From the NCBI GenBank assembly GCA_000004985.1, contig GG738856.1: a stretch of DNA of 64,000 nucleotides. The stretch is one strand, 5' to 3'. Numbering within the stretch: the stretch's first letter is position 1; every line of letters begins with the position of its first letter. This DNA is from Naegleria gruberi. Its lineage: Eukaryota. The notes beneath the pieces are model-generated. The model was not told the DNA's origin and did not search any database. It worked only from the letters and a program-made list of their open reading frames with translations. The position numbers were made by a program, and so were the translations under genes. Below, piece after piece: positions 1-62,707 of the stretch.

Positions 1-567
1 TGAAAAAACTGTTTGAATTACAGTTTGAAATGAGGTGAGAGTTCAAACGAAACTGATCGAATCGTATACAAAATACTTTGAACGGCTTTTTGGTACTAAA
101 ATGATACACCAATACTACACAGAGATATTTGTTGCATTTGAGATGTTCGTTTCAATATTGAGTGTTCTTTATCCAATTTTCCATTCTTCTGAAACCTATT
201 CTAATAACTCATTGTAAAGTGAGTTGATATTATTGAGAGTTAAAATGTTAACAACTACTAGAATATTAGTTAGTCTGCATTTAGGCATTTTATACATTTC
301 TTCACAACCATCGTTATTTACATTTTTGTGTTATGGTGTTATCTAGGTGCAATGGTTAATTATCTTTTGGAGAATATTAAGAATGAAAATGCAATTTAAT
401 AATCAATTCTTACCAAGTAAGTAGAATGTTACTCTTGAATGGAAGCACCTTTGACGACTCCACTGTAAAGTTAACTCTTTGGATTTACAGTTTTTTAACA
501 GGAGGATAAAGAGACTGTGAAAATAAGAAACCTTTATGTCTGAAAAATTTCAAATCAGGTGGTGTTG

Positions 568-608
568 GTTTAGCGCCTAAACTTTCTTCGCGCCAAAAGT
601 TTCCCGCC
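568..608. promoter_or_regulatory. Cluster of E2F-type sites 50–90 bp upstream of the kinesin-14 ATG: TTTAGCGCC, TTCGCGCCAAAAG and TTTCCCGCC.
   Basis: These GC-rich TTTSGCGCSAAA-like motifs stand out in AT-rich 5' flanking DNA. The position fits a core promoter element of a mitotic gene. Confidence 0.45.
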
Positions 609-657
609 TTCACAAAAATTAATCAGTTAACATTTTTAAAACAACCACACAAAAAAA

Positions 658-2157
658 ATGTCTCAACTTCCATCATCTGCCCAGAGCAACATTTCCATCG
701 ATTTTAACGATCCTCCAATCGGCCTTGAACAATCATGGCTCGAAGAAAATAGAGACAGTCGTGAAGGACATACTCTTCTTAAATCATTAATTATTGATCA
801 AATTAATCAAATTCCGGTTGCTAACTTTAATCTTGTTCTTCAACAGTGCAGAAATAGAACAAGTGATGGAGTGAGTTGCCATCTTTCCCAACAAATTGAA
901 TTATACAAACAAGAGATTGACAAGTTGATTCAAGAAAATCAACGTGTTAGTAAACAATTACACAAGGAGATGAAACTCCGTCAACAATACTTTAACGAAT
1001 TGCAATTGTTGAAAGGTGCCATCAGAATTTTTGTTAGAGTCAGACCATTGCTGACACATGAAATTCAACAAGGAGACTTTACAGTACTCAGATTTTCAAA
1101 GACAAATCCACAAACTCTTTTCCTTCCAAAAGTTTTACAAGAAACACAACCAGAAGATAAGATTACCAAACAAAGCCATAGACAATTCCAATTTGACAAG
1201 GTATTAGGACCTAATGTTCATCAAAAGATGTAAGTGATTATTGATTTTAATTTATATTAATATTTACATTTGAAATATAGGTTATATGACGAAGAAATTT
1301 CACCACTAACTAAATCAGTTCTTGATGGCTATAATGTTTCTATCTTTGCTTATGGTCAAACTGGTACTGGTAAAACTCACACAATGCAAGGAAATGGAGA
1401 TGAAATTGGTATTCAACAATATATTTTACAAGATTTATATAATCACAAGAATAAGGATAAGGATATGTATAATATGACAATTGCATTGAGTTGTATGGAA
1501 ATTTACAATGAAACTTGTATTGATTTACTCAGAAGTCAAGATAACAAATTAGAACTCAAGATGGATCCACAAAATAAGAAAATTATTGCTCAGGGATTAA
1601 GAGAAGTAGTTTGTAATGAATTACAGGAAGCTTTGCAATGTTTGATTTTCGCTCAAAAGAATAGAGCTGTTTCATCTACAAGTCAAAATCATAGATCCTC
1701 AAGATCTCACCTTATTGTGCAAATTTCTGTTTGCAAAATGTTCCTTAAACACCCAGAAGCTAACAGTGAAGAAGAACAACAAAATATTACGCCAACCTGT
1801 ACAACATCTCAAATGTACTTGATTGACTTGGCTGGTAGCGAGAAGATCAACACCAGTGGTGCAAGCAATCCAATTACTGACAGTGAAACAAAACATATTA
1901 ACAAATCTTTATCTGCTCTTGGCAATGTTATGGAAGGATTAAGAAACAGAAGTGCTAAACCTGGACAAAATGCTCACATTCCTTACAGGGATACAAAATT
2001 GACATACTTTATGAGTAATGTTTTTAGAGATAAGCACTCGATATGCTGTATGATTCCTCACGTTGCTCCAAGCTCTTTATGTTTCAATGAATCTTTGAGA
2101 ACACTTCAATTTGCTGAAAGAATGAGTGGAATAGCTCTTAACAATGTAAATCAATAA
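658..2157 (+). CDS. Kinesin-14 family kinesin with C-terminal motor (KAR3/Ncd-like). Two exons: 658..1229 and 1281..2157, with intron 1230..1280.
   Basis: The neck motif LKGAIRIFVRVRP immediately precedes the motor. Motor motifs are present: P-loop GQTGTGKTHTM, switch I SSRSH, switch II DLAGSE, and HIPYRDTKLT near the C-terminus. A GTAAGT donor in phase 2 and a TATAG acceptor restore the conserved motor stretch FDKVLGPNVHQKM/LYDEEISPL. Confidence 0.85.
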
Positions 2158-2195
2158 ATTAATTTATTTAAATAATATTAACAAATGTTGACAAA

Positions 2196-3348
2196 TTACA
2201 AGTTGAGTAAATCAGCTTCTTCCTTAATTCTTCTAGAGAAATCAGCAATGGTAAGAGAAATACCTTCATGCAAGGCAACCTTTGGTGACCAACCAAGTAA
2301 AGTCTTTGCCTTGGTAATGTCTGGTCTTCTGACTTTTGGATCATCTTGTGGAAGTTCGTGGAAAACTAATTGATTTGACTCGGTTGCTCCAATCATTTCT
2401 CTAATCTTTTCAGCCATTTCCAAAACAGTATATTCTTCTGGATTACCAATATTGACAGGTCCAATAGTAACATCTTGATTCATCAAAGTGTGCAATCCTT
2501 CAATTTGATCACTAACATAACAGAATGATCTGGTTTGTTTACCAGTTCCGTAGACAGTGATGTTAATTCCCTTAAGAGCTTGATAAACAAAATTACTAAT
2601 AATACGTCCGTCAGTCAAATTCATTCTAGGTCCATAAGTGTTGAAAATTCTAGCAACACGGACTTGAGTATTCTTGGTTCTATTAAAATCAAAGCAGAGA
2701 GTTTCAGCAGCTCTCTTTCCTTCATCATAACAAGATCTAGTACCAGTACAGTTGACATTTCCCCAATAAGTTTCAACTTGTGGATTAATAGCTGGATCAC
2801 CATAAACTTCACTAGTAGAAGTGATCAACAATCTAGCATTCCACTTTGTAGCAAGAGTGAGGAAATTATATGTTCCTTGAACACAAGTCATTGTTGTATG
2901 AATTGGATCTTTTTGATAATGTGGTGGTGAAGCAGCACAAGCCATGTGATAGATTTGTCCAATACCTTCCAATGATGTAATTCTTTCATCGGAGAGAGCA
3001 TTAATCACATCAGCTTGAATGAAATGTACATTAGGATTTTCAGACAAGTGTTTCAAATTAACCAAACTTCCTGTTTGCAAATTATCAATAACATAGATTT
3101 CATCCTTGTTATCACTCTTTTTCAAAAGGTAATCAACCATATGACTTCCTATTGTATTGGAGGTATAATTTTAATATTATTATTATTGTTGATGATGATG
3201 ATAATTATATATGATGTTCATAAACCATCCACATCCATTATTATTGCAATAAGTAAAATAATATGATGGTAATTCATATTAGTAAACTAATATTGACAAA
3301 ATAATACAAACCAAGGAAGCCAGCACCACCAGTCACTACAATCTTCAT
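2196..3348 (-). CDS. UXS1: UDP-glucuronic acid decarboxylase (UDP-xylose synthase). Two exons: 3348..3312 and 3148..2196.
   Basis: Exon 1 encodes MKIVVTGGAGFLG (the NAD-binding GxxGxxG) and splices in frame to SHMVDYLL. The remainder matches the UXS short-chain dehydrogenase/reductase fold (YDEGKR, NTYGPRM, PDITKAKTLLGW). Confidence 0.85.
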
Positions 3349-3500
3349 TTTTGTTTGTTTTTTTTAATCGTTGTTGCCAATGAGAAACAACTATTTGATT
3401 GGTGAATGGTCAGCTTATTGGATAATTTGTGATATTACATTTTACAAAAGTTAAAGTACACCATGCCAATTATGAAGAGTGGATGTTGAGTTTTGGATTT

Positions 3501-4574
3501 TTAATTGAGAGAAACTTGATAAACATCAAAGTGATGATTTAGCTTTGAATTCTCATGGACGCAGTATTCTTGATTTACCTTATTGATTAGTCCACCAAAA
3601 TTATTTCCACATTCATGTACAAAGTATATTCTTCTAATTCTAGAGTGTAAGAGAGCCATTGCACACATACAGCAAGGTTCATGTGAAATAAATAAATCCA
3701 ATCCTTTGCAGAGGTAGGGAATTTCTGTACTCGGTGTGTTAGGTGGTAGCTTCTCAATTGTCTCTATACAGTATTGGGCAATGACATCCACACCAACAAC
3801 AGCACAGTGCCTCAGTGAGCATTTGAATTTTCCCAAATTTGAAAGAGTACCTTCTGTTTCTGAATAGTAAGGAGAGAAAAATGAATTTTTAGATTCGTCT
3901 AGGAATAATTCATCATGAATACTAGATTTAACAATTGTCTTGGTTTGTGGATTGAAAAATAACCCAGAAACTCGCTTACTCTTTTCAAATGAATCAATTA
4001 CTAGTTTTGTACATGTTTCTACAGATTTCTCATCGTGACTATTTACATTTAGTTCTGCTTTTGGATCTAATTTTGCCAATTGAAGTTCAGTTTCATATAA
4101 ATTAACAGTTTTAAGAGGCCAATATTGAGTATTCCATTCCTTCCACTGATATTTCAATTTAGGTCCATATTTTGGAATTTTAAAAAGTTTCAAAATTTTT
4201 TCTGCTTGTTGATGATCCGAACATTCTAAAATTGTTTTAAAAACATGATTTTCTTTTGTAAGTAATTCATCATCCGAGCTTTGAAAAACATTAGAAATCC
4301 ACCTCTGTAAATTTGTATTTTCATCAGTATCATCATCAATATTCAACAATGGATACAAAACACAATAAGTATCACTTCCAATAGTTTTAATTCTTTTAAT
4401 AAAATCTATATCACGAGCCTCCAATGGAAAATTCTTATTCAAATATTGAATCAAGCCTGAAGTTTTTGATTTATTTTCCACTCTTATCCCGATAATATTA
4501 ATCAACTCCAAATCGGTAATCTTCGGCTTGGTGTAGATGTTTTTAATTGATAACTGTGATGATGAATTTTCCAT
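3501..4574 (-). CDS. tRNA-specific adenosine-34 deaminase, non-catalytic subunit (Tad3/ADAT3-like).
   Basis: The C-terminal cytidine/deoxycytidylate deaminase zinc motifs are H-C-A-V-V (the catalytic Glu is replaced by Val, as in Tad3/ADAT3) and PCCMCAMAL. I place the start at the ATG at 4574. The upstream extension MSCPLHLKKKK in the ORF track reads through the T-run that flanks the retroelement and is probably spurious. Confidence 0.6.
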   Translation of the reverse strand: MENSSSQLSIKNIYTKPKITDLELINIIGIRVENKSKTSGLIQYLNKNFPLEARDIDFIKRIKTIGSDTYCVLYPLLNIDDDTDENTNLQRWISNVFQSSDDELLTKENHVFKTILECSDHQQAEKILKLFKIPKYGPKLKYQWKEWNTQYWPLKTVNLYETELQLAKLDPKAELNVNSHDEKSVETCTKLVIDSFEKSKRVSGLFFNPQTKTIVKSSIHDELFLDESKNSFFSPYYSETEGTLSNLGKFKCSLRHCAVVGVDVIAQYCIETIEKLPPNTPSTEIPYLCKGLDLFISHEPCCMCAMALLHSRIRRIYFVHECGNNFGGLINKVNQEYCVHENSKLNHHFDVYQVSLN

Positions 4575-4582
4575 ATTTTTTT

Positions 4583-4599
4583 TTTTTTTTAAATGCAAT
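4583..4599. repeat. 5' copy of the target-site duplication TTTTTTTTAAATGCAAT.
   Basis: Identical 17-mer recurs at 6013..6029, immediately after the element's 3' end. Confidence 0.55.
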
Positions 4600-6012
4600 G
4601 GGCAAGACAATTAGTAGTTTTATCCATCTAGCAAGAGGAAATTCAATTTCCAATCCTCGCCTACAAACAATTGACTCAACAATAAGGGGTAACCTAAAAA
4701 GATCAATGAAGATCGATGCAAAGGTAAAACCATCCACAATGTATGCACAATTCGAAAGAAAAGGACTAGAAATTCCAAACCTCGAATACATAGCCAACTC
4801 AATCCTTTGCAATAACTTAATCAACAAATTCCACTCAAGTAACCCACTTGTCAGAGAAGCAGTACAGTACGGAATTAATAACTGTAACACGAACAAAACA
4901 AAACTACACAACATATTTGAAAAATTCCACTACATCCTAAAACAACACAAACTTACCACAACAATATGTAACACCAATCATCAACTTCTGGAAAAGGAAA
5001 AAGATGAACAATACTCCTACTCAGAATTCACAATATGGACTGATGGATCCAAATCAGAAAACAAAGTAGGATTCAGTGTAATCATTCAGAACAACGAATT
5101 TACAAAAGGATACAAATACAAGCTCCACTCATACCACTCAAACAACATGGCTGAATTATCAGCAATTACAACAGCACTACACATCATACCACCAAACAGC
5201 AATGCAAAGGTACTCACTGACAGTGAAATAGCAGTCAAAATAATTTACAACACAAATTACAAAGGTCAATTTAAGCAAATCAAAGATGAAATTACCAACC
5301 TCATCAGCACTAAAAAACTTCAAGCATCCATCGAATGGACAAAAGCTCATACAGGAATAACAGATGGAAATAACTACGCTGATAAGAAAGCCAAACAAGC
5401 CTCAAGAATAGGACATCGAATTGCACCCCAACATCTACTAACTCAAGGGCAACTAATTATCACCAATTCGAAAAAAGTTTGGAAAAGTAGAATCAAAGGA
5501 GTACTTAGTGAAAAGCTCTACAATCAAGGAACATCCGAACTCATCAACAGAACAAATCTCAATTACCTCAAAGAACATACCACCCCAACTCACAAATACT
5601 CAATCTGGAGGCTCATGATAAATGGACACTTAAGAAGCCTCATAGTAGACAACCCACAATGCCCAACATGTAACAAAAACCTTGACACAGAACACCTCTT
5701 CATAGAATGCCCAGAAATGAATTCAGCTAGAAACTGGATGATTGAAGAAATCAAAAAAAATACCAATCTCGAACCAGTACTAAGCACAGAGAGGACAGAA
5801 ATATTAACACCAAACTCATTCCAACTGAATATCTTTGGTATTCTGACAGAACCTATTCAAGGTATTATCAAAGAACAATGGCCCAAGATACAAGGAGGCC
5901 TCTCACTTTTTGGAGGAAGAGTACAAAAACAATACAACAAAATCTTAAAAATTCAATAAGACGTTCCAAATGGACGAACCCGTCGGGTTCATTCGATTAA
6001 TAAACGTTTAAA
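4600..6012 (+). mobile_element. 5'-truncated non-LTR (LINE-like) retrotransposon fragment carrying the C-terminal RT tail, an RNase H domain and a Cys/His-rich tail. ORF 4547..5959.
   Basis: RNase H motifs are present (TDGSK, MAELSAITTALH, LTDSEIAV, EWTKAHTGITDGNNYADKKAK), followed by a CPTCNK..H..C zinc-knuckle-like tail. No upstream RT, endonuclease or gag sequence is present. The fragment is flanked by a direct 17-bp duplication, TTTTTTTTAAATGCAAT, and carries a 3'-terminal hairpin. Confidence 0.6.
5976..5990 (+). other. Perfect hairpin GAACCCG-T-CGGGTTC at the 3' end of the retroelement fragment.
   Basis: A 7-bp inverted repeat with a 1-nt loop sits about 25 nt before the element/TSD junction, which is the typical position of a LINE 3'-UTR stem recognised by the reverse transcriptase. 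Confidence 0.4.
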
Positions 6013-6029
6013 TTTTTTTTAAATGCAAT
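6013..6029. repeat. 3' copy of the target-site duplication TTTTTTTTAAATGCAAT.
   Basis: Identical to 4583..4599. Confidence 0.55.
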
Positions 6030-6386
6030 TTCAAAATTTATTTTTTAATCTTTTTGTAAAATATACAACAACAAACTGTAGTGAAAATTGTAAAGATTGC
6101 GACCTGTAATTTGAAAATATGTTCAATCTTGATACAATGTCGGAATTATTGCGCTCAGGAAGGGTAATTTCATTGTTTGACTTTAGATGTGTTCATTGTT
6201 GAAAAAGAGAAATAATTCCACAAACACAACATTTCAGTTCTTGCAAGGAACCATGCATAAGGTTGAGGGAACATATTTGGCACTAACCTGAAACTTCAAT
6301 TCTATTGTTTTTAATGACATTTTGTCCCAGTTGATCTATTTGAAAGACAGATGCAACAATGTTTCTTTCACTCACTTATTCAAAAA

Positions 6387-7648
6387 ATGTCTCAATATAA
6401 CCAATCTTTTACCACTCAACCTGGTTATCCTCAACCAGTTAATGTTCAACCATTGTCTTATAACCCTGCCATTCAACAATTTTCTCAACCACAATATGGT
6501 CAACCAATGAGCCCATCTCTGCAACCAAGTCCATCAACTCCAAATTCTTCTTTCACAAAGCAATCTGGAGGTTCTTTCCACATGCAACAAGATCCAGCTC
6601 TAATTCAATCAAACACACCAAGTCAACCAGTTCTCGAGTGTAAGAATTTGTTACCTTTTATTGTTAATGATAAGCTTGTAAAGAATACTTTTTGGGCAAC
6701 TGGTGGTAATATCCTAATCAAGATATTCATATTTGTTGTCAATAAGTTTATTCTCATGGGTTTAGGTGAAGCTCTGATGGTCAATTACATTACCAGAAGA
6801 GAAGTTAAAAACATGAGAATTGGTAACAGAATGTTGAGCTACAAATCAAGAGGAAACTTCAAGATGGCCCTCCTATGTGTTGTTAATTGGATATTGAACA
6901 TATTCTCATGTGGTTTATTCTACATTCTTGGTTATAGTCATATCATGTACCTTTCTCAACTCGATGCCAGAATTCACTGGGGAAAACCAGCTAAAATTTC
7001 CAAGAAGAGTCAATGAAAGAGGCAATTTGTTGGGAACCAATTGGTAATGGAATGGGTGAATTCAAGATATTTAGTGTATACTTGGGTGTTGGATTTGAAA
7101 TAATGTTCATCATTTTGTATTCACTCAATTTGGTTTCGTTTGGTTTACTTTCTCCACTATTGTACAAGATTTACTTCCCAGCCTACTTTGAGAAGGTTCA
7201 ATTGGGAAAGGGAAGATTTGCAGTCATTCATCCAAAGATGATTTCCTCAATTAATAAGCATGCCAAGAAGAGATCCAAATTGAAGAAGGAAAAAATTGAA
7301 CAACCAACAGAAGTTTATCCATGTGATTATCCAGTTTTAGGTTTTCCACCTCAACCTTCTCATGAAACATACAAACTTAAATTGAAATTTGTTCCAACTT
7401 TTTGTGAGTTGATCAAATTCTTTGTAACGATCAATGTTCTCAGCTTTGTGTCATGTGGATTATTTGTCAAGTGTTGCTTGGCAAATTATGCCAGAAATTA
7501 CATGAATAGAAATATTCATATTGAATTGGAATCAGTTCCATTAGAAGAGCTGCTCAATAATAATAATATCACAGTTTCAAATAATGAGATTGCATTGCAA
7601 CAAGTGACTGTAGTTGAAACTGTTATCATTCAACCTAATCAACAATAA
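6387..7648 (+). CDS. Multi-pass membrane protein with a P/Q/Y-rich N-terminus and two related hydrophobic modules. The reading frame is interrupted by a -1 shift near 6995..7016, from either a sequencing indel or a pseudogene.
   Basis: ORFs 6351..7016 and 7013..7648 overlap by 4 nt in different frames. Both halves have a similar architecture: a hydrophobic helix, a basic loop, then a hydrophobic helix. No GT..AG pair of plausible size could join them. Confidence 0.4.
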
Positions 7649-7693
7649 ATATTACTTCAATTCTTATGAAATGAATTTATTCGATATGTTAAT

Positions 7694-7708
7694 TTTGGCG
7701 CCATTTTG
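7694..7708. promoter_or_regulatory. Palindromic E2F-type site TTTTGGCGCCATTTT, 29 bp upstream of the ORC2 ATG.
   Basis: Near-perfect match to the palindromic TTTGGCGCCAAA consensus in an otherwise AT-rich flank. ORC subunits are classic E2F targets in other eukaryotes. Confidence 0.5.
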
Positions 7709-7736
7709 AAATGTTGAACTTTTTAAAATAAAAAAA

Positions 7737-9086
7737 ATGAGCGCCAATAACACACTCACTATCAGCAATTTAATTTTTGTTGGTGATGAGGATGAATCTT
7801 TACAGGATAGATTTAACAAGATTGATCCGAGTATTCTGACTAAATATTCACGAGATTGTACCTTTAAAGAATATAGGCTTGTGGATTCGGATGATATTAC
7901 ATTGGATTCGGAGAAGGAAGATAAATTCTTCTCCACTCCTTTTGAACAATACAATTTACAGAAATTAATTAAAAAGACTAAAACATCGGCCAGTGATAAG
8001 GTTGTAATTTCGTTGGAAGATGTTGATTGTACAATTCCTTCTCATGATGACAAGTATTTTGAACCTGTTTCTTTTAAAACTAAAAGTGATAATTTAGTAT
8101 TGGAACGAGTGAATGAATGGATGCACTGTTTGAGATGTGATAATAATTTATTATTTTATGGATTAGGATCAAAGATTAATCCACTGAATCAATTAATGTA
8201 TTGCATGAAGGAAAGTGATGTGAATAGTTTCTTTGCAATTGTTTGTGGATATAATCCTGAAATTACAATCGGAATAATGTTGGATGACATTTTAAAGACA
8301 CATCTGAAAGAGAAGAATACTAAGAATTTATCATATGTGGAGAAAGTGGACACAATTATAAGAATAATGAATCAACGTAATGAATTGGCCAAACCTTTAC
8401 CTGATGATGAATTTGGTGATTTTGCAGAATTTATGAAAGATGAAGAGCCATCTACAAAACATGCCAAACAACATTTGTACATTTGCATTCATAATATTGA
8501 TGGACCAGGCCTTCGTTCTAAATCCACTCAACATTTACTCTCTGTTCTATCAAGTAATAGATATATTCACTTGATTTGTAGTGTAGATAATCAATTATCA
8601 AATTTATTATGGGAACCCTCAATTGAAGACAAGTTTGGCTTTATGAGATTCAATATTACCAACTTTTGTACATATTTTGCTGAATCTGAATATTACTCAT
8701 TACAAGATTTGTACAATGAATCATCTGATGGAAAGAAGAGTAGTGAAGAGAAATCACTTGGACCAGTTGAAATTGTTGCCAATATTTTAAAGTCAGCAAA
8801 CAAGAAACACAGACAAATTTACATGATTATTTGCAACAAATTTATTGAAAATGAAAAGTACAATGAATCGGAAGAAGGATCTAGCCAACCTAAACCTAGT
8901 GGCAGCACTCATCAAGAAATCAAATCTTCTATGGGTGTTTATTCAACAGATGATGCCTTGCTGAGAGATGGTTTGTCATATCTGGAAAATCAAATTAAGG
9001 TTATCAAGAAGAAGCAAAATACCTTTATTCCGACCTTGAAGCGAAATCAATGTGAAAAACTCTTGGTCATATTAAACAATTCATAA
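7737..9086 (+). CDS. ORC2: Origin recognition complex subunit 2.
   Basis: Carries the ORC2 signature LLFYGLGSK..L..F and the later IHNIDGPGLR...Q.LLS.L block of the ORC2 family. Single exon. Confidence 0.75.
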   Translation: MSANNTLTISNLIFVGDEDESLQDRFNKIDPSILTKYSRDCTFKEYRLVDSDDITLDSEKEDKFFSTPFEQYNLQKLIKKTKTSASDKVVISLEDVDCTIPSHDDKYFEPVSFKTKSDNLVLERVNEWMHCLRCDNNLLFYGLGSKINPLNQLMYCMKESDVNSFFAIVCGYNPEITIGIMLDDILKTHLKEKNTKNLSYVEKVDTIIRIMNQRNELAKPLPDDEFGDFAEFMKDEEPSTKHAKQHLYICIHNIDGPGLRSKSTQHLLSVLSSNRYIHLICSVDNQLSNLLWEPSIEDKFGFMRFNITNFCTYFAESEYYSLQDLYNESSDGKKSSEEKSLGPVEIVANILKSANKKHRQIYMIICNKFIENEKYNESEEGSSQPKPSGSTHQEIKSSMGVYSTDDALLRDGLSYLENQIKVIKKKQNTFIPTLKRNQCEKLLVILNNS

Positions 9087-13799: not shown

Positions 13800-14979
13800 A
13801 TGCCCTCTTTTCAACATCAAGATGAATTGTTGTGGATTTTGAATAATGTAAATAATTATAGTCAAAATGTACTTCCGAATCTACTCTTCTCAACTTTGAA
13901 TCAATCATTACCAAATATACAGCTGCAGGAAACAACACCCAATGATCCACCTGATATTTTGTTCATTATATTTCAAGTGATTTTTGTAATTTTAAATTGC
14001 ATTCAGTTCGAGTAATATATTATTTACTGTTTGGTCATGGTGTGTTGAGTATGCACCTGCATTGAATGTTCAAAATAGTGAGATTTCGAATGTGACGTGG
14101 ATTTTGAGTCATCTATTTGCACATGGAAACTTTGCATTTGCATTATGTTCAGCAACTTGGAGTGTTTCTATAGCTGTAGCAATTTATGCAACAACGAAGA
14201 AGGTTAAATGGATGGAAGAAAATTATGTCTACGACATATTATTTCACATAATTTCATGGGGTGTTGCCTTAATTTCATTCATTTCAGTATTTACCTACAG
14301 AGTTTCTGCCAAATTGACTGGATTTCATGACCAACATCCAGATATTGAAAATTATATTCTCACCTTTTTCAACTTTTTTGGAGCATTCTATCTTATCATT
14401 GTAAGTATTTGTCAATTTATACTAATAAGCTGATTTCGCGTTTTCAGGCTGCTGTTGTGGACTTTTCTATTTTGTACCTTATTTGGAAGCATGTCGGGAA
14501 TGTTTTATCCAGAACTCAACTTAGGATTGTTGTCAAACAGGAAACAAAGCGAGCCCAACGCAGAATTATTGGAAAATTAAGCTTATATTTGGTCCCTTTG
14601 TAAGTATCTACCTCCTCAATATTTTGTTAATTATTCCACAAACAGTTTGGTTTCCTCTAGTTTTCAATCAATATGGCTATTATACAATGGATGTAAATAT
14701 CTAGTTGGAAGAAATGATGATAATTTTGAGTATTATTTCTACTTGCTATATAGTATCTTTGTTCCAATGCAAGGATTTTTAAATTTCCTAGTTTTTGGTC
14801 TGACATTGGGAAGGTCAGCACTTGTTAAACTTTTACGATGTGATTGCCTTAGGGGCAAATATACAACTTCAGAAGAAAGAGAGTCCTTATTGAGCATTAA
14901 CAATACTATGCTTAATTCCTTAAATTCCAATGTTGGTGTTGGTAGAGAACGTTCTGCATCTGATGATCTAAGTTCATGA
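13800..14979 (+). CDS. Seven-transmembrane receptor of the cAMP-receptor-like / family-2-like GPCR type. Four exons: 13800..14011, 14079..14400, 14448..14599 and 14646..14979.
   Basis: Successive hydrophobic helices are spread over four in-frame exons joined by GTAATA/GTAAGT donors and AG acceptors. The last helix contains FVPMQGFLNFLVFG, a TM7 QGF.N..VF motif as in the cAR/Crl family. The C-terminal tail is Ser-rich. Confidence 0.5.
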
Positions 14980-20356: not shown

Positions 20357-20820
20357 ACCGTGTATGGATAGTCACAAAATTGAATCGCACCTGCCTGATT
20401 TAATTTAACAACGAAATGAGAAATGGATGGCACAATTAATTGAGATGATTCTTAATTGGTGAACTCACATATTATATTGTGAATTCATTTGTTTTCATGT
20501 TATTTCGTTATAATTACAGAAAGTAATGGGGTTGTACTTTTGGTTGATGATGAGAAAATTTTAAATAAGGTTTACTAATTAAAAGAATCCAATAGGATTC
20601 AACAAAATAATGAAAAGTAAACAATAAGCTTCAAAATTATCATCTCTTTCAATACATACACTCAAACACTTTAAAGTCGTCGACTACTCTGTCCACACTT
20701 TCCCTAGTGATATCACTCTTCATTCAAGAAAACCTTAGTTTCTCAGTTCAGTTTATTCATATCTGAAACCTTTAGGCGGGTAAAAGGAAAATCTTCACTT
20801 CAAAACTCTGAAAAAACAAA

Positions 20821-42653: not shown

Positions 42654-42899
42654 ATTTTTTTATACCATATATATTTGAAAGAGAAGAATTTTGATGAAGA
42701 TTAATAAGGAAATTAACAAACCTATTTTAAAAATTGGCGGTAAATAACTACAATTCATCATTGAATAGCCTTTAAAAAAACAATCAAAAACACATCTCTC
42801 TATCTTATTATTATTTTAATAAATAATAATAATATCTATTCAACAATACATCATTCTCAACAATTTCATACAAATCTTAGTAGTAATTTTAATAATAAT

Positions 42900-47483: not shown

Positions 47484-50400
47484 NNNNNNNNNNNNNNNNN
47501 NNNNNNNNNNNNNNNNNNNNNNNNNNNNNNNNNNNNNNNNNNNNNNNNNNNNNNNNNNNNNNNNNNNNNNNNNNNNNNNNNNNNNNNNNNNNNNNNNNNN
47601 NNNNNNNNNNNNNNNNNNNNNNNNNNNNNNNNNNNNNNNNNNNNNNNNNNNNNNNNNNNNNNNNNNNNNNNNNNNNNNNNNNNNNNNNNNNNNNNNNNNN
47701 NNNNNNNNNNNNNNNNNNNNNNNNNNNNNNNNNNNNNNNNNNNNNNNNNNNNNNNNNNNNNNNNNNNNNNNNNNNNNNNNNNNNNNNNNNNNNNNNNNNN
47801 NNNNNNNNNNNNNNNNNNNNNNNNNNNNNNNNNNNNNNNNNNNNNNNNNNNNNNNNNNNNNNNNNNNNNNNNNNNNNNNNNNNNNNNNNNNNNNNNNNNN
47901 NNNNNNNNNNNNNNNNNNNNNNNNNNNNNNNNNNNNNNNNNNNNNNNNNNNNNNNNNNNNNNNNNNNNNNNNNNNNNNNNNNNNNNNNNNNNNNNNNNNN
48001 NNNNNNNNNNNNNNNNNNNNNNNNNNNNNNNNNNNNNNNNNNNNNNNNNNNNNNNNNNNNNNNNNNNNNNNNNNNNNNNNNNNNNNNNNNNNNNNNNNNN
48101 NNNNNNNNNNNNNNNNNNNNNNNNNNNNNNNNNNNNNNNNNNNNNNNNNNNNNNNNNNNNNNNNNNNNNNNNNNNNNNNNNNNNNNNNNNNNNNNNNNNN
48201 NNNNNNNNNNNNNNNNNNNNNNNNNNNNNNNNNNNNNNNNNNNNNNNNNNNNNNNNNNNNNNNNNNNNNNNNNNNNNNNNNNNNNNNNNNNNNNNNNNNN
48301 NNNNNNNNNNNNNNNNNNNNNNNNNNNNNNNNNNNNNNNNNNNNNNNNNNNNNNNNNNNNNNNNNNNNNNNNNNNNNNNNNNNNNNNNNNNNNNNNNNNN
48401 NNNNNNNNNNNNNNNNNNNNNNNNNNNNNNNNNNNNNNNNNNNNNNNNNNNNNNNNNNNNNNNNNNNNNNNNNNNNNNNNNNNNNNNNNNNNNNNNNNNN
48501 NNNNNNNNNNNNNNNNNNNNNNNNNNNNNNNNNNNNNNNNNNNNNNNNNNNNNNNNNNNNNNNNNNNNNNNNNNNNNNNNNNNNNNNNNNNNNNNNNNNN
48601 NNNNNNNNNNNNNNNNNNNNNNNNNNNNNNNNNNNNNNNNNNNNNNNNNNNNNNNNNNNNNNNNNNNNNNNNNNNNNNNNNNNNNNNNNNNNNNNNNNNN
48701 NNNNNNNNNNNNNNNNNNNNNNNNNNNNNNNNNNNNNNNNNNNNNNNNNNNNNNNNNNNNNNNNNNNNNNNNNNNNNNNNNNNNNNNNNNNNNNNNNNNN
48801 NNNNNNNNNNNNNNNNNNNNNNNNNNNNNNNNNNNNNNNNNNNNNNNNNNNNNNNNNNNNNNNNNNNNNNNNNNNNNNNNNNNNNNNNNNNNNNNNNNNN
48901 NNNNNNNNNNNNNNNNNNNNNNNNNNNNNNNNNNNNNNNNNNNNNNNNNNNNNNNNNNNNNNNNNNNNNNNNNNNNNNNNNNNNNNNNNNNNNNNNNNNN
49001 NNNNNNNNNNNNNNNNNNNNNNNNNNNNNNNNNNNNNNNNNNNNNNNNNNNNNNNNNNNNNNNNNNNNNNNNNNNNNNNNNNNNNNNNNNNNNNNNNNNN
49101 NNNNNNNNNNNNNNNNNNNNNNNNNNNNNNNNNNNNNNNNNNNNNNNNNNNNNNNNNNNNNNNNNNNNNNNNNNNNNNNNNNNNNNNNNNNNNNNNNNNN
49201 NNNNNNNNNNNNNNNNNNNNNNNNNNNNNNNNNNNNNNNNNNNNNNNNNNNNNNNNNNNNNNNNNNNNNNNNNNNNNNNNNNNNNNNNNNNNNNNNNNNN
49301 NNNNNNNNNNNNNNNNNNNNNNNNNNNNNNNNNNNNNNNNNNNNNNNNNNNNNNNNNNNNNNNNNNNNNNNNNNNNNNNNNNNNNNNNNNNNNNNNNNNN
49401 NNNNNNNNNNNNNNNNNNNNNNNNNNNNNNNNNNNNNNNNNNNNNNNNNNNNNNNNNNNNNNNNNNNNNNNNNNNNNNNNNNNNNNNNNNNNNNNNNNNN
49501 NNNNNNNNNNNNNNNNNNNNNNNNNNNNNNNNNNNNNNNNNNNNNNNNNNNNNNNNNNNNNNNNNNNNNNNNNNNNNNNNNNNNNNNNNNNNNNNNNNNN
49601 NNNNNNNNNNNNNNNNNNNNNNNNNNNNNNNNNNNNNNNNNNNNNNNNNNNNNNNNNNNNNNNNNNNNNNNNNNNNNNNNNNNNNNNNNNNNNNNNNNNN
49701 NNNNNNNNNNNNNNNNNNNNNNNNNNNNNNNNNNNNNNNNNNNNNNNNNNNNNNNNNNNNNNNNNNNNNNNNNNNNNNNNNNNNNNNNNNNNNNNNNNNN
49801 NNNNNNNNNNNNNNNNNNNNNNNNNNNNNNNNNNNNNNNNNNNNNNNNNNNNNNNNNNNNNNNNNNNNNNNNNNNNNNNNNNNNNNNNNNNNNNNNNNNN
49901 NNNNNNNNNNNNNNNNNNNNNNNNNNNNNNNNNNNNNNNNNNNNNNNNNNNNNNNNNNNNNNNNNNNNNNNNNNNNNNNNNNNNNNNNNNNNNNNNNNNN
50001 NNNNNNNNNNNNNNNNNNNNNNNNNNNNNNNNNNNNNNNNNNNNNNNNNNNNNNNNNNNNNNNNNNNNNNNNNNNNNNNNNNNNNNNNNNNNNNNNNNNN
50101 NNNNNNNNNNNNNNNNNNNNNNNNNNNNNNNNNNNNNNNNNNNNNNNNNNNNNNNNNNNNNNNNNNNNNNNNNNNNNNNNNNNNNNNNNNNNNNNNNNNN
50201 NNNNNNNNNNNNNNNNNNNNNNNNNNNNNNNNNNNNNNNNNNNNNNNNNNNNNNNNNNNNNNNNNNNNNNNNNNNNNNNNNNNNNNNNNNNNNNNNNNNN
50301 NNNNNNNNNNNNNNNNNNNNNNNNNNNNNNNNNNNNNNNNNNNNNNNNNNNNNNNNNNNNNNNNNNNNNNNNNNNNNNNNNNNNNNNNNNNNNNNNNNNN

Positions 50401-51244
50401 NNNNNNNNNNNNNNNNNNNNNNNNNNNNNNNNNNNNNNNNNNNNNNNNNNNNNNNNNNNNNNNNNNNNNNNNNNNNNNNNNNNNNNNNNNNNNNNNNNNN
50501 NNNNNNNNNNNNNNNNNNNNNNNNNNNNNNNNNNNNNNNNNNNNNNNNNNNNNNNNNNNNNNNNNNNNNNNNNNNNNNNNNNNNNNNNNNNNNNNNNNNN
50601 NNNNNNNNNNNNNNNNNNNNNNNNNNNNNNNNNNNNNNNNNNNNNNNNNNNNNNNNNNNNNNNNNNNNNNNNNNNNNNNNNNNNNNNNNNNNNNNNNNNN
50701 NNNNNNNNNNNNNNNNNNNNNNNNNNNNNNNNNNNNNNNNNNNNNNNNNNNNNNNNNNNNNNNNNNNNNNNNNNNNNNNNNNNNNNNNNNNNNNNNNNNN
50801 NNNNNNNNNNNNNNNNNNNNNNNNNNNNNNNNNNNNNNNNNNNNNNNNNNNNNNNNNNNNNNNNNNNNNNNNNNNNNNNNNNNNNNNNNNNNNNNNNNNN
50901 NNNNNNNNNNNNNNNNNNNNNNNNNNNNNNNNNNNNNNNNNNNNNNNNNNNNNNNNNNNNNNNNNNNNNNNNNNNNNNNNNNNNNNNNNNNNNNNNNNNN
51001 NNNNNNNNNNNNNNNNNNNNNNNNNNNNNNNNNNNNNNNNNNNNNNNNNNNNNNNNNNNNNNNNNNNNNNNNNNNNNNNNNNNNNNNNNNNNNNNNNNNN
51101 NNNNNNNNNNNNNNNNNNNNNNNNNNNNNNNNNNNNNNNNNNNNNNNNNNNNNNNNNNNNNNNNNNNNNNNNNNNNNNNNNNNNNNNNNNNNNNNNNNNN
51201 NNNNNNNNNNNNNNNNNNNNNNNNNNNNNNNNNNNNNNNNNNNN
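47484..51244. other. Assembly gap of 3761 N.
   Basis: Poly-N run. The ORF-track entries 47424..51269 and 47479..51249 are translations of N and are meaningless. Confidence 1.
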
Positions 51245-53064: not shown

Positions 53065-53947
53065 NNNNNNNNNNNNNNNNNNNNNNNNNNNNNNNNNNNN
53101 NNNNNNNNNNNNNNNNNNNNNNNNNNNNNNNNNNNNNNNNNNNNNNNNNNNNNNNNNNNNNNNNNNNNNNNNNNNNNNNNNNNNNNNNNNNNNNNNNNNN
53201 NNNNNNNNNNNNNNNNNNNNNNNNNNNNNNNNNNNNNNNNNNNNNNNNNNNNNNNNNNNNNNNNNNNNNNNNNNNNNNNNNNNNNNNNNNNNNNNNNNNN
53301 NNNNNNNNNNNNNNNNNNNNNNNNNNNNNNNNNNNNNNNNNNNNNNNNNNNNNNNNNNNNNNNNNNNNNNNNNNNNNNNNNNNNNNNNNNNNNNNNNNNN
53401 NNNNNNNNNNNNNNNNNNNNNNNNNNNNNNNNNNNNNNNNNNNNNNNNNNNNNNNNNNNNNNNNNNNNNNNNNNNNNNNNNNNNNNNNNNNNNNNNNNNN
53501 NNNNNNNNNNNNNNNNNNNNNNNNNNNNNNNNNNNNNNNNNNNNNNNNNNNNNNNNNNNNNNNNNNNNNNNNNNNNNNNNNNNNNNNNNNNNNNNNNNNN
53601 NNNNNNNNNNNNNNNNNNNNNNNNNNNNNNNNNNNNNNNNNNNNNNNNNNNNNNNNNNNNNNNNNNNNNNNNNNNNNNNNNNNNNNNNNNNNNNNNNNNN
53701 NNNNNNNNNNNNNNNNNNNNNNNNNNNNNNNNNNNNNNNNNNNNNNNNNNNNNNNNNNNNNNNNNNNNNNNNNNNNNNNNNNNNNNNNNNNNNNNNNNNN
53801 NNNNNNNNNNNNNNNNNNNNNNNNNNNNNNNNNNNNNNNNNNNNNNNNNNNNNNNNNNNNNNNNNNNNNNNNNNNNNNNNNNNNNNNNNNNNNNNNNNNN
53901 NNNNNNNNNNNNNNNNNNNNNNNNNNNNNNNNNNNNNNNNNNNNNNN
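53065..53947. other. Assembly gap of 883 N.
   Basis: Poly-N run. Confidence 1.
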
Positions 53948-56747: not shown

Positions 56748-59700
56748 TTATTGTAAATTAAATGTAGTTGAAAGAGCTAATGTTTGTAAAAGATCAATTT
56801 GATTGGTAAGGTAAATATTTTGTGTAACACTTGCAATGTTAAATAAACATTGTTCCTTTTGATTGGATCTATCTTCTTGTATCATACCAATATAATCTGT
56901 ATCAGCTTCATAAACCGTCAATAAGGATTTAACCTTAACCATCATGTTAGTAATCTTTACAGTTGTATCTGAAACAGCTACACGATGTTCAAGTGTGTAA
57001 AGAGTTAAATGTTTAACTAGATCTAATAATTCTGTAATTTGAATATCCAATCTACATAATGCATCATAGGTTGATTTAATATTGGATGACTCGGTGAAAA
57101 TTGTTGAATTTCCTTCAACATGTGCTTCAAGATCTTCAAATTGTTTTCTCACACAAATATATCTATATAAAATATCACCTCCCTTACTCCAATTTGGAAT
57201 CAAATCTTGATGATTATAAAGCTTTTGAACATATTTAGAAAGTTCTTCATACTTGTTACAAAGTAAAAGATCAGATAGAATATATTCTAGGAAAACATTG
57301 TGAGCTTCAATATAATTATGATAAAGACACAAATTTTCAAATAATAAATGATAGGAACATGTATATCTAGCATAAAGAGCTGCAGCTTCATATATCCAAT
57401 TAGGAGAAATTTGTAATTGAGAGATGAATTTCATTCCTGATTCATTAGACATGAGAATAGGATAATTTCTAAAGAGAATTTCTCTGAGTGCTCTATTTCT
57501 AACATCAATGAGTCTTTCTCTCTTGAATTTAGAAACAAGACTATTTGATTTGTCTTGGTAATTCAATTCTCTATTAATATCATCTGAAATATTTGGCATT
57601 AAATCACAATGACACAATATAAACAAGGCATATTGTGGATACCCAGATTGTTCTAATTGAAGAGCATAATTACAAGTGATAATATGTGACATTGATCCAG
57701 TAGTATCACAACTTGTAACACGTCTCAATACATTATACAAATGCCATGTAAGTTGACAATCTAAAATATCATCAATATAAGTGGATGGTTCTAAAGATGA
57801 ACTTATTGGTATTTCTTTTTTACAATACATTCCTAAAATATGATACCTCAAATCATAATGTGTCTCTGATGAATGTCTAGATGATGATAAAAATGGTTTA
57901 GTGGCTCTAAAAGTTTCAAAATAATTTGTATAACTAGAGAAAACTTCACTAATTGTTGTATCTGGAGAACTCTTATACCACAAATGCAAACCCAAACATT
58001 GAAGCCATGTTAGAGAAGTATCACAAACATTACCTGCTAAGAGTTCATAAATTTTGATCAAATCCTTTTCAATATTAGCTTTTGCTTGTTTCCATAAATT
58101 AATTTGTTTTTGAATATCCTTTTGCATGAAAGGATTTGAGAAGGATTGAGAAATGATTGAAGAAAGTCTCACATCCTTATTATCGAGAGCAACTCTAGCA
58201 GCTTCTGCAATTCTTCCAGAAGATAACAACAAGTAAATTTTTTCCAATGGTTTTGGATTAGCTCTATTGATAATTTCATCAATTGGAATTTGTTCACGAA
58301 TCCAAGCACTCAAATTTCTCTTTCTAGCAATATCAGTTGCATAATTATTACCATCAAGCATATCAACATCACCAAAAAGTAAATTAGCAAGCTTCCATAC
58401 ACTCAACTCAAACTTTTCACGATTAACAATCAATTGTTTAGTAGCATCAGAGAAGTGATAATGATCAACTGAATTAATTATCTTTTCACATTTTTGAACG
58501 TGACCTTCCATTAATGCTGTATATGAATTATTCTTGAGAGAAATATGAACATCAGTAGGATCTCTTTCAACGTGTTCAATTTCCAAGTGAACCTTAGATT
58601 CATATTTGAGTTTAAGATATTCTTCATCTTGATTTTGTGGTACTTGCTTATCTTCTTTTACAAAGAACTCTGACACTGAAATATTGGAAACTTTTGATTT
58701 TGGATTAAATACAATAGTAGGTACAATAAATTGGCCATTAGGTAAAAATCCCACTCTAAATGATCGACTCAATGAAAACAATGAATCTCTCTTGTCAGAC
58801 TCTGCCTCTGCATCTCCAACAATATTTGATGGAGTACTGTCGATATACTTTCTTGGTTTGATTGTTGGTTGTTGGATTGGAGCATCCTTTTTAATAAATG
58901 CTAAAGTTGGTTCTGATTCAGAAATTTCCTTAAATCTTGGTTTCTTAGTTTGTCTAATAGCTTCAAAATCGATATTATTATCATCAGCAGCTTCATCATC
59001 AGTCATTAAATTTGCTTGCATAATGTACATTCTTCTTGGATCTAAATTAAGTTGTCTTGGAAGAAATGTTCTGTGACTTTCAATTTGCATAACATCTTCT
59101 CCTTCTTCCTCATCATTATCCATAACTTCTTCCTCATCAACAATTTCATCTGAATTGGTGCAGAATAGAGTTAATTATGTTAAAAAAGAAAGTTTAATTT
59201 GTTTCATTATTACAAATTAATATCTTACCTTCTGAAGTATCCGAAATTTCATCAAGATTGATTTTTTTCACAACTTGAAATGGTTCTTGTTTTTCCTCCT
59301 CATCTTCAATAATTTCTTCCTCTTCCTCGTCGTCAAAAATACCATACTTGGTAAAGTGTTCAACTTTGAATGTCCATTGTCCGGTTTCATAGTCAATAAA
59401 TCTACTACCAGACTTTTCATTGGCTTTTCTCAACTTTCTTTCAAATTGCTTGTAATCATTGTTCTTTGGATGGACATTGAACAATTTAATGATGGTTGGC
59501 TTATTGAGTTCAGTTCCAACTGGAGGTTTGGTCCTTTCTGTGTATACATTGCTACTATATACCTCCACATGATGAGTTTCAATCTCGTAAATAATTTTAT
59601 CCAAATCCAAATTCTTAGTCAAGTCAGTAACTCCAAGGAACTCAACTTCACCATATCCTTTTCTTCCTACAGTGAATCCATTACAATTTTGCAAGTCGTG

Positions 59701-62142
59701 TTGAGACATTTGCTTCATTTGTTCAAAGGATGGCTTGGTGTAATATCCTTCCTTTGTTAACTTTGGTAAATAGCTTGGTTTAACAGTTGTTTCCTTTGGT
59801 GCTTGTTCAATATCAAGAGAAATACCTTTACCCTTTTGAGGTTTTGGTCTAATAGCATTACTACTAATTGTTTTTTGAGAATCATCTCTTTCTATAGTTG
59901 TACCAGTAGATCTTGGTTGATTCAATTGTTGACTTGATCTCTTATCAAAAACAGCAGAAGAAATTGTCAATTCCTTAACATTTTCCTTAGAAGTAAATGA
60001 ATTACTATCAAGCAAGTCCAATGTTACAGGTTCTGTATCAGAAGCAATTAAAGACATTCTGTCAACCAATGTACTATTAGAGCTCTTTTTGAAAGTTCTT
60101 GGTCTAACTTGAGTTGATGTCTTTTGAATAGACTTTGAAATAACACTAGATTCTTCTTCTTGGGCATAGCTTTGCTCGAGTGCTTCCTTTTGAAGTTGGA
60201 AAAGAGGATTAGTACCAAATGGATCTGCCAAGAGATTATTAAGATCTTGGAGAGCCATTGGAGCAACACCATATCCGGTATTGGTTGGTTGAGCACCAAA
60301 ACCTGTTGTCATGCCAAGTCCAACACCAGTAGGTCCACCAAAATTGAAACCACTTGTTCCTCCAAGAGGTTGAGTAGTAGTGCCACCAAAATTGAAACCA
60401 GATGAACCAGTTGTGTTACCTCCAGTTGTACCAAAATTAAATCCACTACCAGTTGTAGTACCAGGTCCAGTTGCGCCCAATCCACCACCACCAAAGTTAA
60501 AACCAGTAGATGGTGCTGTAGTTGTTGTACCAGTTGTTGCACCAAATCCACTTGTACCAGTACCAAAATTAAATCCACTTGATGTTTGAGCTGGTTGTGT
60601 TGAGCCACCAAAATTGAAACCAGAACCAGTATTAGTTGCACCAGTTGTTGGTTGTGTTGAACCACCAAAATTGAAGCCAGAGCCTGTGGTTCCTGTATTA
60701 GTTGTTCCTCCTATAGGTGCAAGAGTTGTAGAACCACCTCCAAAGTTGAATCCTGAAGAAGGTTGAGAAGCACCAAATCCAGTGGTAGTGTTAGCTGTTC
60801 CTGTATTACTAGATCCAAATGCAAAACCAGTGTTTGCAGTTCCTGTTGTTGGTTGTGATCCAAAGCCTAATCCTCCAGTGGTTCCTGTTGTTGGTTGTGA
60901 TCCAAAACTAAAGCCAGTACTAGTTGTGGCAGGCTTATTACCGAATGCAGATGTTGTAGAACCGAATCCACCTGTAGTTGTATTACCAAATCCAGTGTTA
61001 GTAGTAGTACCAAATCCTGTTTGTGTGGTAGGTTGAGTTCCAAAACCAAAGCCAGTATTAGAAGCACCTCCCATAGTTCCTGTCGTTCCAAAACCAGTAT
61101 TTGTTGTTGTTGTTGTTGTTCCAGTATTTCCAAAAGAGAAACCTGTAGATGGTTGAGTTGTTTGTCCAAATCCTCCAGTTGTGGTACCAGTTGTTGGAGT
61201 AGAAAATGGATTTTGAGTTAATTTTCCTTGAGATGCAAGTGTGAAATACCATCTCCATTCTTCAAATGATTTATCCTTGTAAGGATCCATTTTAGTAATC
61301 GAATAGTATATCATCTTTGAATTTGTAGTAGTATTGTTTTCTTCAGTTGGCTTAAATGATGGGAAAGATTGTGGAGTAATTGGTCCACCAGTATTTCCCA
61401 TACCCATACCTGTGGTGTTAGTTGCTCCGAATCCCATTCCAGTATTTTGTGTTGGTTGAGCTCCAAATAAACCTCCACCAGTAGTGTTTTGTGTTGGTTG
61501 AGATCCAAATGAAAAGCCTGTACCTGTTGTTGGTTGAGTAGAACCAAATGTACCTGTTGTTGTTCCAGTAGTCCCACCAAATGGATTGGATGCACCAAAT
61601 GCACCTGTTGTTCCTGTACTTGGTTGAGAACCAAAACTAAATCCTGTGCCACCTGTTGTTGTGGTTGTTCCTGTTGATCCAAATGTATTTGTGGATGGTG
61701 CTCCAAATCCAGTGTTAGTTGCAGTGGTTCCACCAAAAGGATTACCAGATGCACCAAATGTATTACCTTGTTGTTGTGGTTGTTGTGGTTGTGTTTGTGT
61801 ATTACCAAAGCCAAAACCTGTATTTGTAGCTCCAGTTGTACCAAAAGGCTTATTTTGACCAAAAGCACCAGTTGTATTATTATTCATTCCACCAAAGCCA
61901 CCAGTATTTGTCGATGGTTGAGAACCAAAGCTAAATCCTGTATTTTGGGTTGTTCCTGTTGATCCAAAACCTCCACCACCAGTGTTTGGTTGTGCTCCAA
62001 ATCCACCACCTGTATTTCCACCAGTACCAAAAGAAAAACCAGTACCTCCTGTTGTTCCTGTTGATCCGAATCCACCACCACCAGTGTTTGGTTGTGCTCC
62101 AAATCCACCACCAGTATTAGTACCTCCACCAAAATTAAACAT
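56748..62142 (-). CDS. NUP98: Nup98–Nup96 nucleoporin precursor encoded as one gene. Two exons: 62142..59229 and 59149..56748.
   Basis: Exon 1 carries about 800 aa of FG/GLFG/FGxxxxFG repeats, the Rae1/Gle2-binding GLEBS-like segment (MIYYSITKMDPYKDKSFEEWRWYF), and the C-terminal autoproteolytic domain (GYYTKPSFEQM...FTVGRKGYGEVEFLGVTDL...HFTKYG). A GTAAGA donor (phase 1) and TTCAG acceptor (79-nt intron) lead in frame into the Nup96 body (EIVDEEEVMDNDEEEGED... to the C-terminus). Confidence 0.85.
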
Positions 62143-62707
62143 TTTTAATCGACGTTTCTGTTATTATATAATGATATTATTATTTGTATATATATTCAAT
62201 AAAGTATTGTTTGCGTTATTCCGTTTTACCTTGCCGTGTTGATGACAAATCTACAATGATGACAATCTTACGCGAAAAAGCACAACTTTTTACTTTGAAT
62301 ATTTTTTTAGAAGGCAATTTAAAACAAATAAAATTTATCAAAGGCTTTGTTGATGATTGTTATTTTCTTCTTATTCTTCTAACAATTGTAGTTTAGTACG
62401 AGAATGATGTAAACTCTTAGTAATAATATAAAAGAGAGTTTTTGTTTGGAATTGAATGTTTGGAATGTAGTTATTTTGAGAAACTTGCCAAAACATGTTG
62501 TAGAGATATTCTTGTGGTAGGAAATACTTGAGCAAGGAATTCCAAAAAATGGAATTTATCAGCATCAAGATGAAAATACTAATAATATGAATAGAATCGG
62601 ATCACTATTATCATTAATATTTTAATATTAATATTAATCTAATTTAATTATTCCAATTATTTAATAATATATAATATATAATATAATAATAATATATTTA
62701 AAAAAAA

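Follow-up and report, generated by a model that had tools for sequence, protein, structure and literature searches.

Two genes in a 64-kb stretch of Naegleria gruberi DNA (the whole of which is called the window here), encoding a kinesin-14 and the replication protein ORC2, carry GC-rich elements of the E2F type just upstream of their start codons. We consider it rather likely that the elements at 586-608 and 7693-7707 are sites for E2F-DP, and possibly also for DEL, the former in the proximal promoter of a kinesin-14 gene of the mitotic type and the latter in that of ORC2. The E2F interpretation is strongly supported at kinesin-14 and moderately supported at ORC2. N. gruberi belongs to Heterolobosea (Discoba) and is neither an amoebozoan nor a plant. 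The identity of the motif, its rarity, its position and its conservation across lineages were observed directly, as were the presence and conservation of the cognate factors; from these sequences we infer that the factors would bind and would control transcription with a certain sign and cell-cycle timing, and that the two genes may belong to a wider regulon. A first-pass annotation of this DNA had proposed that the genes fit an Rb/E2F cell-cycle regulon. The rarity of the motif, its conservation (in half of the ORC2 promoters) and the presence of E2F, DP, DEL and RB proteins support that proposal, with binding and periodic expression as its predicted part.

The positions of the elements (Table 1) were counted from the ATG codons (658 for kinesin-14 and 7737 for ORC2), so that "promoter-proximal" is used here relative to the ATG and not to the transcription start site. 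The kinesin-14 elements together cover −89 to −50. The middle one contains the exact consensus TTTGGCGC on the minus strand (590-597), and its plus-strand half CTTCGCGC has one mismatch. The classic palindromic E2F site of DHFR is TTTCGCGCCAAA, from which the middle element, read as CTTCGCGCCAAAA, differs by one base. The distal element is E2F-like with one mismatch on each strand (TTTAGCGC on the plus strand and TTAGGCGC on the minus strand). Three E2F-type elements had been announced for this promoter; two of them hold the exact consensus (590-597 and 600-607), whereas the third, TTTAGCGCC at 569-577, which is part of the distal element, matches TTTSSCGC only with one mismatch. Since the distal element is not kept in the other three kinesin-14 promoters of a four-species alignment, it is the weakest of the three.

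The ORC2 element holds the exact consensus TTTGGCGC on the plus strand (7694-7701) and a palindromic GGCGCC core (7697-7702). It occupies the middle of the intergenic region, which measures 88 bp and has a GC content of 16% once the motif is excluded. The kinesin-14 flank has 29% GC without the motifs, as compared with 50% in the motif block, and the earlier description of the flanks as AT-rich is thus borne out for both genes. The elements themselves read as they had been given, with coordinates off by 1 nt at most (the ORC2 element is shifted 1 nt to the left). A second E2F-like site with one mismatch, which was absent from the earlier annotation, lies within codons 2-4 of ORC2; its status as a candidate element is uncertain.

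The motif is rare. Matches to TTTSSCGC were found three times on both strands of the 64 kb, each time 30-70 bp ahead of the kinesin-14 or ORC2 ATG, whereas the shuffled window gave 0.38 ± 0.63 matches. The hexamer SGCGCS occurs twice in the window, compared to 0.29 expected. For a background set, the window was pooled with seven fetched loci of Heterolobosea, giving 120.7 kb in all. In this set the relaxed core TTSSCGC was found five times outside the target promoters, i.e. 4.1e-5 per bp; at this rate, the probability of at least one match in a 120-bp promoter is about 0.005. As controls, we used 36 upstream regions of 150 bp (23 from the window and 13 from the fetched loci), the gene starts being approximated by the first ATG. 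TTSSCGC is present in six of the eight kinesin-14 and ORC2 promoters and in none of the 36 controls (Fisher p ~4e-6 by our own arithmetic, with orthologues being non-independent samples). The strict consensus TTTSSCGC was found neither in the control regions nor elsewhere in the window. The observation that no comparable motif precedes other genes was therefore confirmed, TTSSCGC being absent from all 23 other upstream regions of the window.

A scan of the window allowing one mismatch yielded 42 matches vs. 26 expected. A run of such matches, TTTGGTGC and TTTGGAGC, comes from the FG-repeat coding region of Nup98-96 (59197-62160), and the relaxed motif counts are inflated because these sequences give much of the excess. 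Another match, at 14434, is intronic. Two weaker look-alikes had been pointed out, and their positions are right (TTTAGGCGGGTAAAA at 20771-20785 and TTACGCGAAAAA at 62268-62279), but they turned out to be ordinary one-mismatch sites without further support: TTACCCGC is located 45 bp before the F-box gene (match at 20776) and TTTCGCGT about 130 bp before Nup98-96 (match at 62270). The box CGGGTAAAA (TTTTACCCG) occurs at 20775-20785 of the window and also at about 5925-5935 of L007, the locus of the cyclin A-like protein P0137 from a Naegleria relative (Logan run SRR29240419). It lies 45-75 bp upstream of the N. gruberi F-box gene and of the cyclin A-like gene, and GGCGGTAAA is also present at 42737-42745 of the window. 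The box may represent a variant of the E2F site or a motif of its own.

Conservation at kinesin-14 was assessed in four promoters, those of N. gruberi, N. lovaniensis (L003), Willaertia magna (L004) and an environmental close relative of N. lovaniensis (L006; motor domain 89% identical). All four contain TTSSCGC, and three of them contain two sites each. The N. lovaniensis promoter has TTTTCGCGCC at −67 (L003 3933-3942) and GTTCCCGC at −49, its environmental relative has a weakened CCGCCAAAAAA together with TTCCCGC at −52, and W. magna has TTCCCGCC at −73 and GCGCCAAAAA at −44 (L004 3958-3967). No further TTSSCGC was found in any of the kinesin-14 loci (6-10 kb each) besides these promoter sites. 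Willaertia is a different genus, with a kinesin-14 protein identity of 59-61%; the two types of sites are the same as those in Naegleria, although their order is swapped. Such a swap points to sites being turned over under selection and not to simple slow divergence. In the alignment of the four promoters (A1), which has a mean column identity of 52%, TTCCCGC is the sole invariant 7-mer block. The conservation that had been suggested as a check was thus found at kinesin-14 in each of the three independent lineages, namely N. gruberi, the clade of N. lovaniensis and L006, and W. magna.

The upstream neighbour of the kinesin-14 gene is a different divergent gene, or there is none, across N. gruberi, the N. 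lovaniensis clade and Willaertia. Since the neighbour differs between lineages, the E2F-type sites follow the kinesin gene. A bidirectional promoter shared with a conserved divergent neighbour is ruled out, as positions 1-560 of the window contain no open reading frame and the upstream neighbour gene of N. lovaniensis was not found in the window. The sequence CWGTTAA, resembling a Myb site (TAACTG/TAACAG) or an initiator, was also noticed in each of the four kinesin-14 promoters, some 30 bp ahead of the ATG. It was set aside as a meaningful Myb-like or initiator element, because there are 24 matches in the window compared to 27 expected.

For ORC2, the promoters of N. gruberi, N. lovaniensis (L001), N. 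fowleri (L002) and an environmental relative (L005) were compared. The site is present in two of the four (N. gruberi and L005), which represent two of three deep lineages, and conservation at this gene is therefore partial, N. lovaniensis and N. fowleri being without the site. A block of 10 nt, TTTGGCGCCA, is located at −38 in L005 and aligns with the N. gruberi site; the ORC2 proteins encoded by the two loci are 57% identical. ORC2 of L005 is arranged head-to-head with a deaminase gene, whereas N. gruberi ORC2 lies downstream of a co-oriented gene for a probable membrane protein. The site hence travels with the gene between these two while the neighbours change. The region between the deaminase gene and ORC2 in N. 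gruberi (3504-7736) contains two genes, one for RNase H (about 4559-5956) and one (about 6351-7648) for a protein without a Pfam match, which is probably a membrane protein.

Two further observations concern the ORC2 loci. The annotated start of N. lovaniensis ORC2 (4001 in L001) was probably placed too far downstream; translation from an in-frame ATG at 3899 would add MKRRRSSKRR..., a match to the N-terminus of N. fowleri ORC2 (region 3899-4003), and a start there would leave about 20 bp between the divergent start codons. An exact TTTGGCGC was also found at L005 3211-3218, 28 bp past the ORC2 stop codon and with no obvious gene start near; it was counted as background.

The proteins that would recognize such sites are present. 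The N. gruberi protein set includes E2F, DP, DEL (E2F7/8-like) and an RB pocket protein (PMC4862756). The sequences NgruE2F, NgruDP, NgruDEL and NgruRB are those that Medina et al. (2016; PMC4862756) provide as source data, and we checked their domains with Pfam. NgruE2F has the E2F_TDP (1.3e-28) and CC-MB (7.8e-32) domains, NgruDP has E2F_TDP and the DP domain (2.7e-31), and NgruDEL has two E2F_TDP stretches. NgruRB, of which the 280-aa N-terminal part was scanned, matches RB_A with 27.0 bits vs. a cutoff of 25. The recognition helix of NgruE2F is identical to that of human E2F4 in the E2F4-DP2-DNA structure (1CF7), and the helix of NgruDP, NIRRRVYDALNVLMA.NIISK.KKEIKW, is nearly identical to that of DP-2 in the same structure; RRxYD is intact in both. 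Because the helices are identical or nearly so, the same DNA specificity as that of the human proteins is expected. The RB-binding segment of human E2F1 is GEGIRDLF, and it is resembled by the C-terminus of NgruE2F, GEGVSDLF.

In the proposed mechanism, E2F-DP would read the TTTSSCGC core via its RRxYD recognition helices, and the two-domain DEL/E2F7-8-like factor would perhaps also bind the boxes. An RB-family pocket protein would dock on the C-terminal tail of E2F and the promoters would be off in non-proliferating states. CDK activity would then lift the RB repression, and ORC2 and the spindle kinesin would be transcribed together before division. Of the five kinesin-14 paralogues of N. gruberi, two show induction in mitosis only and three in differentiation only; the tail is negatively charged in one of the mitotic paralogues and basic in the remaining four (PMC10802493). 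The N-terminal tail of the kinesin-14 studied here is acidic (isoelectric point (pI) 4.3 across the first 60 aa). Since this value matches the acidic-tailed paralogue, the protein is probably that mitotic one.

Several observations weigh against the assignment of E2F to these promoters. Only two genes are concerned and their classes were picked post hoc, and one of 100 shuffles of the window also reached three matches. Two of four species lack the ORC2 site: no TTSSCGC was found within 9.4 kb of the N. lovaniensis and N. fowleri ORC2 loci, where the gene is arranged head-to-head with the deaminase gene with only about 20-30 bp between them. N. lovaniensis carries TTTTTTCGCCAC at the position aligned with the site, possibly a decayed remnant of it. 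The cyclin A-like gene of L007, the sole extra cell-cycle promoter examined, lacks an E2F site in the 5' flank, and no such sites were found near the gene other than an intragenic pair. The placing of our kinesin-14 among the mitotic rather than the differentiation paralogues is drawn solely from its tail charge. The number of genes, the shuffling and the absences at ORC2 would all suit chance GC-rich octamers or neutral remnants without a regulatory role. We nevertheless regard such an origin as very improbable, since the motif recurs in three kinesin-14 and two ORC2 lineages at a probability of 0.005 per promoter, none of the 36 controls carries it and the invariant island stands within an alignment of 52% identity. 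The pair in L007 consists of two copies of GGCGGGAA (TTCCCGCC), of the TTCCCGC type, at 6622-6654; they are 25 bp apart and located about 620 bp into the called coding sequence. They may form an E2F pair within the gene or an intron, or have arisen by chance.

Two other explanations accept that the boxes are functional. A factor other than E2F might read them, for example a zinc finger of the KLF/Sp type (CCCGCC), a CGCG-box/CAMTA-like protein or a regulator specific to Naegleria. The proximal kinesin-14 element TTTCCCGCC does hold the GGCGGG core of a GC-box, and literature searches turned up nothing on the promoter grammar of Naegleria. However, both canonical E2F flavours (TTTGGCGC and TTTCCCGC) are present together, T-runs included, the invariant block consists of TTCCCGC and hence of more than CCGCC, and the ORC2 site TTTGGCGCC is neither a GC-box nor a CGCG-box. 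Moreover, a cognate factor for which exactly this specificity is expected is present, because the recognition helices of E2F and DP are unchanged from human, and the fungal SBF/MBF factors are absent outside fungi (PMC4862756). We therefore find a non-E2F reader unlikely. It is similarly unlikely, in our opinion, that the sites are bound by E2F but serve the amoeba-to-flagellate differentiation or quiescence/encystment instead of the mitotic cycle, for example through an E2F burst for the de novo assembly of basal-body and flagellar microtubules, loosely like that of E2F4/5-Multicilin in animal multiciliated cells. Three of the five kinesin-14 paralogues are induced only in differentiation (PMC10802493) and E2F4/5 drive centriole amplification in animals (PMC12183034), which would agree with such a role. 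On the other hand, ORC2 is a replication factor with no obvious function in differentiation, the acidic tail fits a mitotic paralogue whereas the other four are basic, and the use of one motif for an S-phase and an M-phase gene fits the single wave known from Dictyostelium (PMC3386910).

The elements resemble the E2F/DP sites of animals and plants in several respects: the TTTSSCGC consensus, the location near the gene start, the frequent occurrence as pairs or palindromes, the ORC subunit as a target and the set of factors comprising E2F, DP, an atypical E2F and a pocket protein. Such sites are found in animal and plant S-phase promoters, e.g. those of DHFR, human and Drosophila ORC1 and Arabidopsis ORC genes. 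In contrast to these, the host described here is a heterolobosean, it is ORC2 that carries the site and does so only in some Naegleria lineages, and the sites are known from sequence alone. The pairing of a replication gene with a mitotic-type kinesin in an amoeba is analogous to the RblA regulon of Dictyostelium, in which the loss of RblA (RB) derepresses ORC, MCM, cdc6 and further replication genes along with exactly the seven mitotic kinesins (Strasser et al. 2012, PMC3386910); the replication genes and mitotic kinesins are expressed at one point of the cell cycle (PMC3386910). The Dictyostelium evidence is genetic (mRNA-seq of an rblA disruptant) and comes from Amoebozoa, whereas that for Naegleria, from a very distant supergroup, consists of a cis-motif and its conservation.

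A GC-rich E2F-like box near TTTGAA also recalls the cell cycle-dependent element/cell cycle genes homology region (CDE/CHR) pair, on which DREAM/MuvB acts at animal G2/M genes including kinesins. TTTGAA was found within 150 bp of the ATG in all eight target promoters vs. 14 of the 36 controls (p ~0.002, post hoc), and in N. gruberi ORC2 it is located at 7705-7710, 2-3 nt past the GGCGCC core. A CDE/CHR composite was rejected, as its defining arrangement, with CHR (TTYGAA) 4 nt downstream of CDE and in fixed orientation, is not kept (TTTGAA lies between −10 and −135) and the hexamer is common in the controls; a DREAM-type CDE/CHR in Naegleria would thus be only a hint. The fungal MluI cell-cycle box (MCB, ACGCGT) and Swi4/6 cell-cycle box (SCB, CRCGAAA), bound by MBF and SBF respectively, are GC-core cell-cycle boxes overlapping with the E2F specificity (PMC4862756), and the look-alike TTACGCGAAAAA in the Nup98 flank resembles them. 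By contrast, the kinesin-14 and ORC2 promoters have no ACGCG core, and SBF/MBF (KilA-N) are restricted to fungi (PMC4862756).

The presence of E2F, DP and RB in the last common ancestor of eukaryotes (LECA) has so far been deduced from gene presence alone, and nearly all of the cis-regulatory evidence for E2F was obtained in animals, plants, green algae and Dictyostelium. Literature searches on Naegleria yielded no paper that describes E2F sites or promoter motifs of the cell cycle. If our interpretation is true, the E2F cis-code itself extends to Discoba, which would support a shared S/M wave as an old arrangement. A broader proposal, which we put forward tentatively and with somewhat more doubt than conviction, is that Heterolobosea use the animal/plant E2F cis-code on S and M genes as one wave and that a combined S and M regulon under E2F/RB was the LECA state; it may include TTTGAA as a CHR-like partner, hinting at a DREAM-type complex. 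These would be the first defined cell-cycle promoters for Naegleria if that combined wave exists. The elements provide candidate cell-cycle promoters of less than 100 bp for an organism with scarce molecular tools and little promoter knowledge, whose relative N. fowleri is a lethal pathogen. To cell-cycle specialists they will be an expected rather than surprising finding, but a useful one, namely a new instance of a known regulatory element in a new supergroup.

Table 1 Coordinates of the putative promoter elements and of the two genes (window positions unless a locus is named; distances from the ATG)
Feature	Position	Strand	Description
Kinesin-14 distal element TTTAGCGCCTAAA	569-581	both	near-palindrome; −89 to −77
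Kinesin-14 middle element TTCGCGCCAAAAG / CTTCGCGCCAAAA	587-599 / 586-598	−	−71 to −59
Kinesin-14 proximal element TTTCCCGCC	600-608	+	exact TTTSSCGC at 600-607; −58 to −50
CWGTTAA	624-630; L003 ~3970; L006 ~2428; L004 ~3969 (minus strand)		Willaertia orientation opposite
Kinesin-14 gene	658-2157	+	exon 1 658-1229, intron 1230-1280, exon 2 1281-2157 including stop
ORC2 element TTTTGGCGCCATTTT	7693-7707	+	−44 to −30
ORC2 gene	7737-9086	+	one exon, 449 aa + stop; PF04084 4.6e-39, 134.6 bits
Second ORC2 E2F-like site ATTGGCGC (plus strand GCGCCAAT)	7741-7748	−	one mismatch; within ORC2 codons 2-4

The identities that had been given to the two genes hold. The kinesin-14 gene, interrupted by a 51-nt GT..AG intron, encodes a protein of 482 aa with a C-terminal motor (residues ~127-480; Pfam Kinesin 1.2e-80). 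Its named best matches in a protein search are KIFC3, KIN-14 and C-terminal motor kinesins, and the class was assigned from these matches and the position of the motor. The partial NCBI model XP_002679701 of N. gruberi matches it with 100% identity, and the N. lovaniensis orthologue with 75%. ORC2, identified by its RecA-like domain (PF04084), has matches of that name in plants, animals and species of Naegleria; the partial model NAEGRDRAFT_88227 agrees with it at 100% identity, and 448 of 449 residues match the 449-aa ENA protein P0223. The public N. gruberi models of both genes are truncated, with 283 aa for the kinesin vs. the 482 aa supported here and 296 aa vs. 449 aa for ORC2.

The remaining genes of the window have no link to the cell cycle. 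They encode a sugar epimerase, a deaminase, RNase H, Vps16, acetyl-CoA hydrolase, ankyrin and F-box proteins, a Rab3GAP-like protein, an inositol-phosphatase-like giant protein, TFIIS, SYF2, DcpS and Nup98-96. The GC content of the window is about 30%. Two assembly gaps appear as runs of N at 47484-51244 and 53065-53947, and the DNA surrounding them is extremely AT-rich (10-25% GC).

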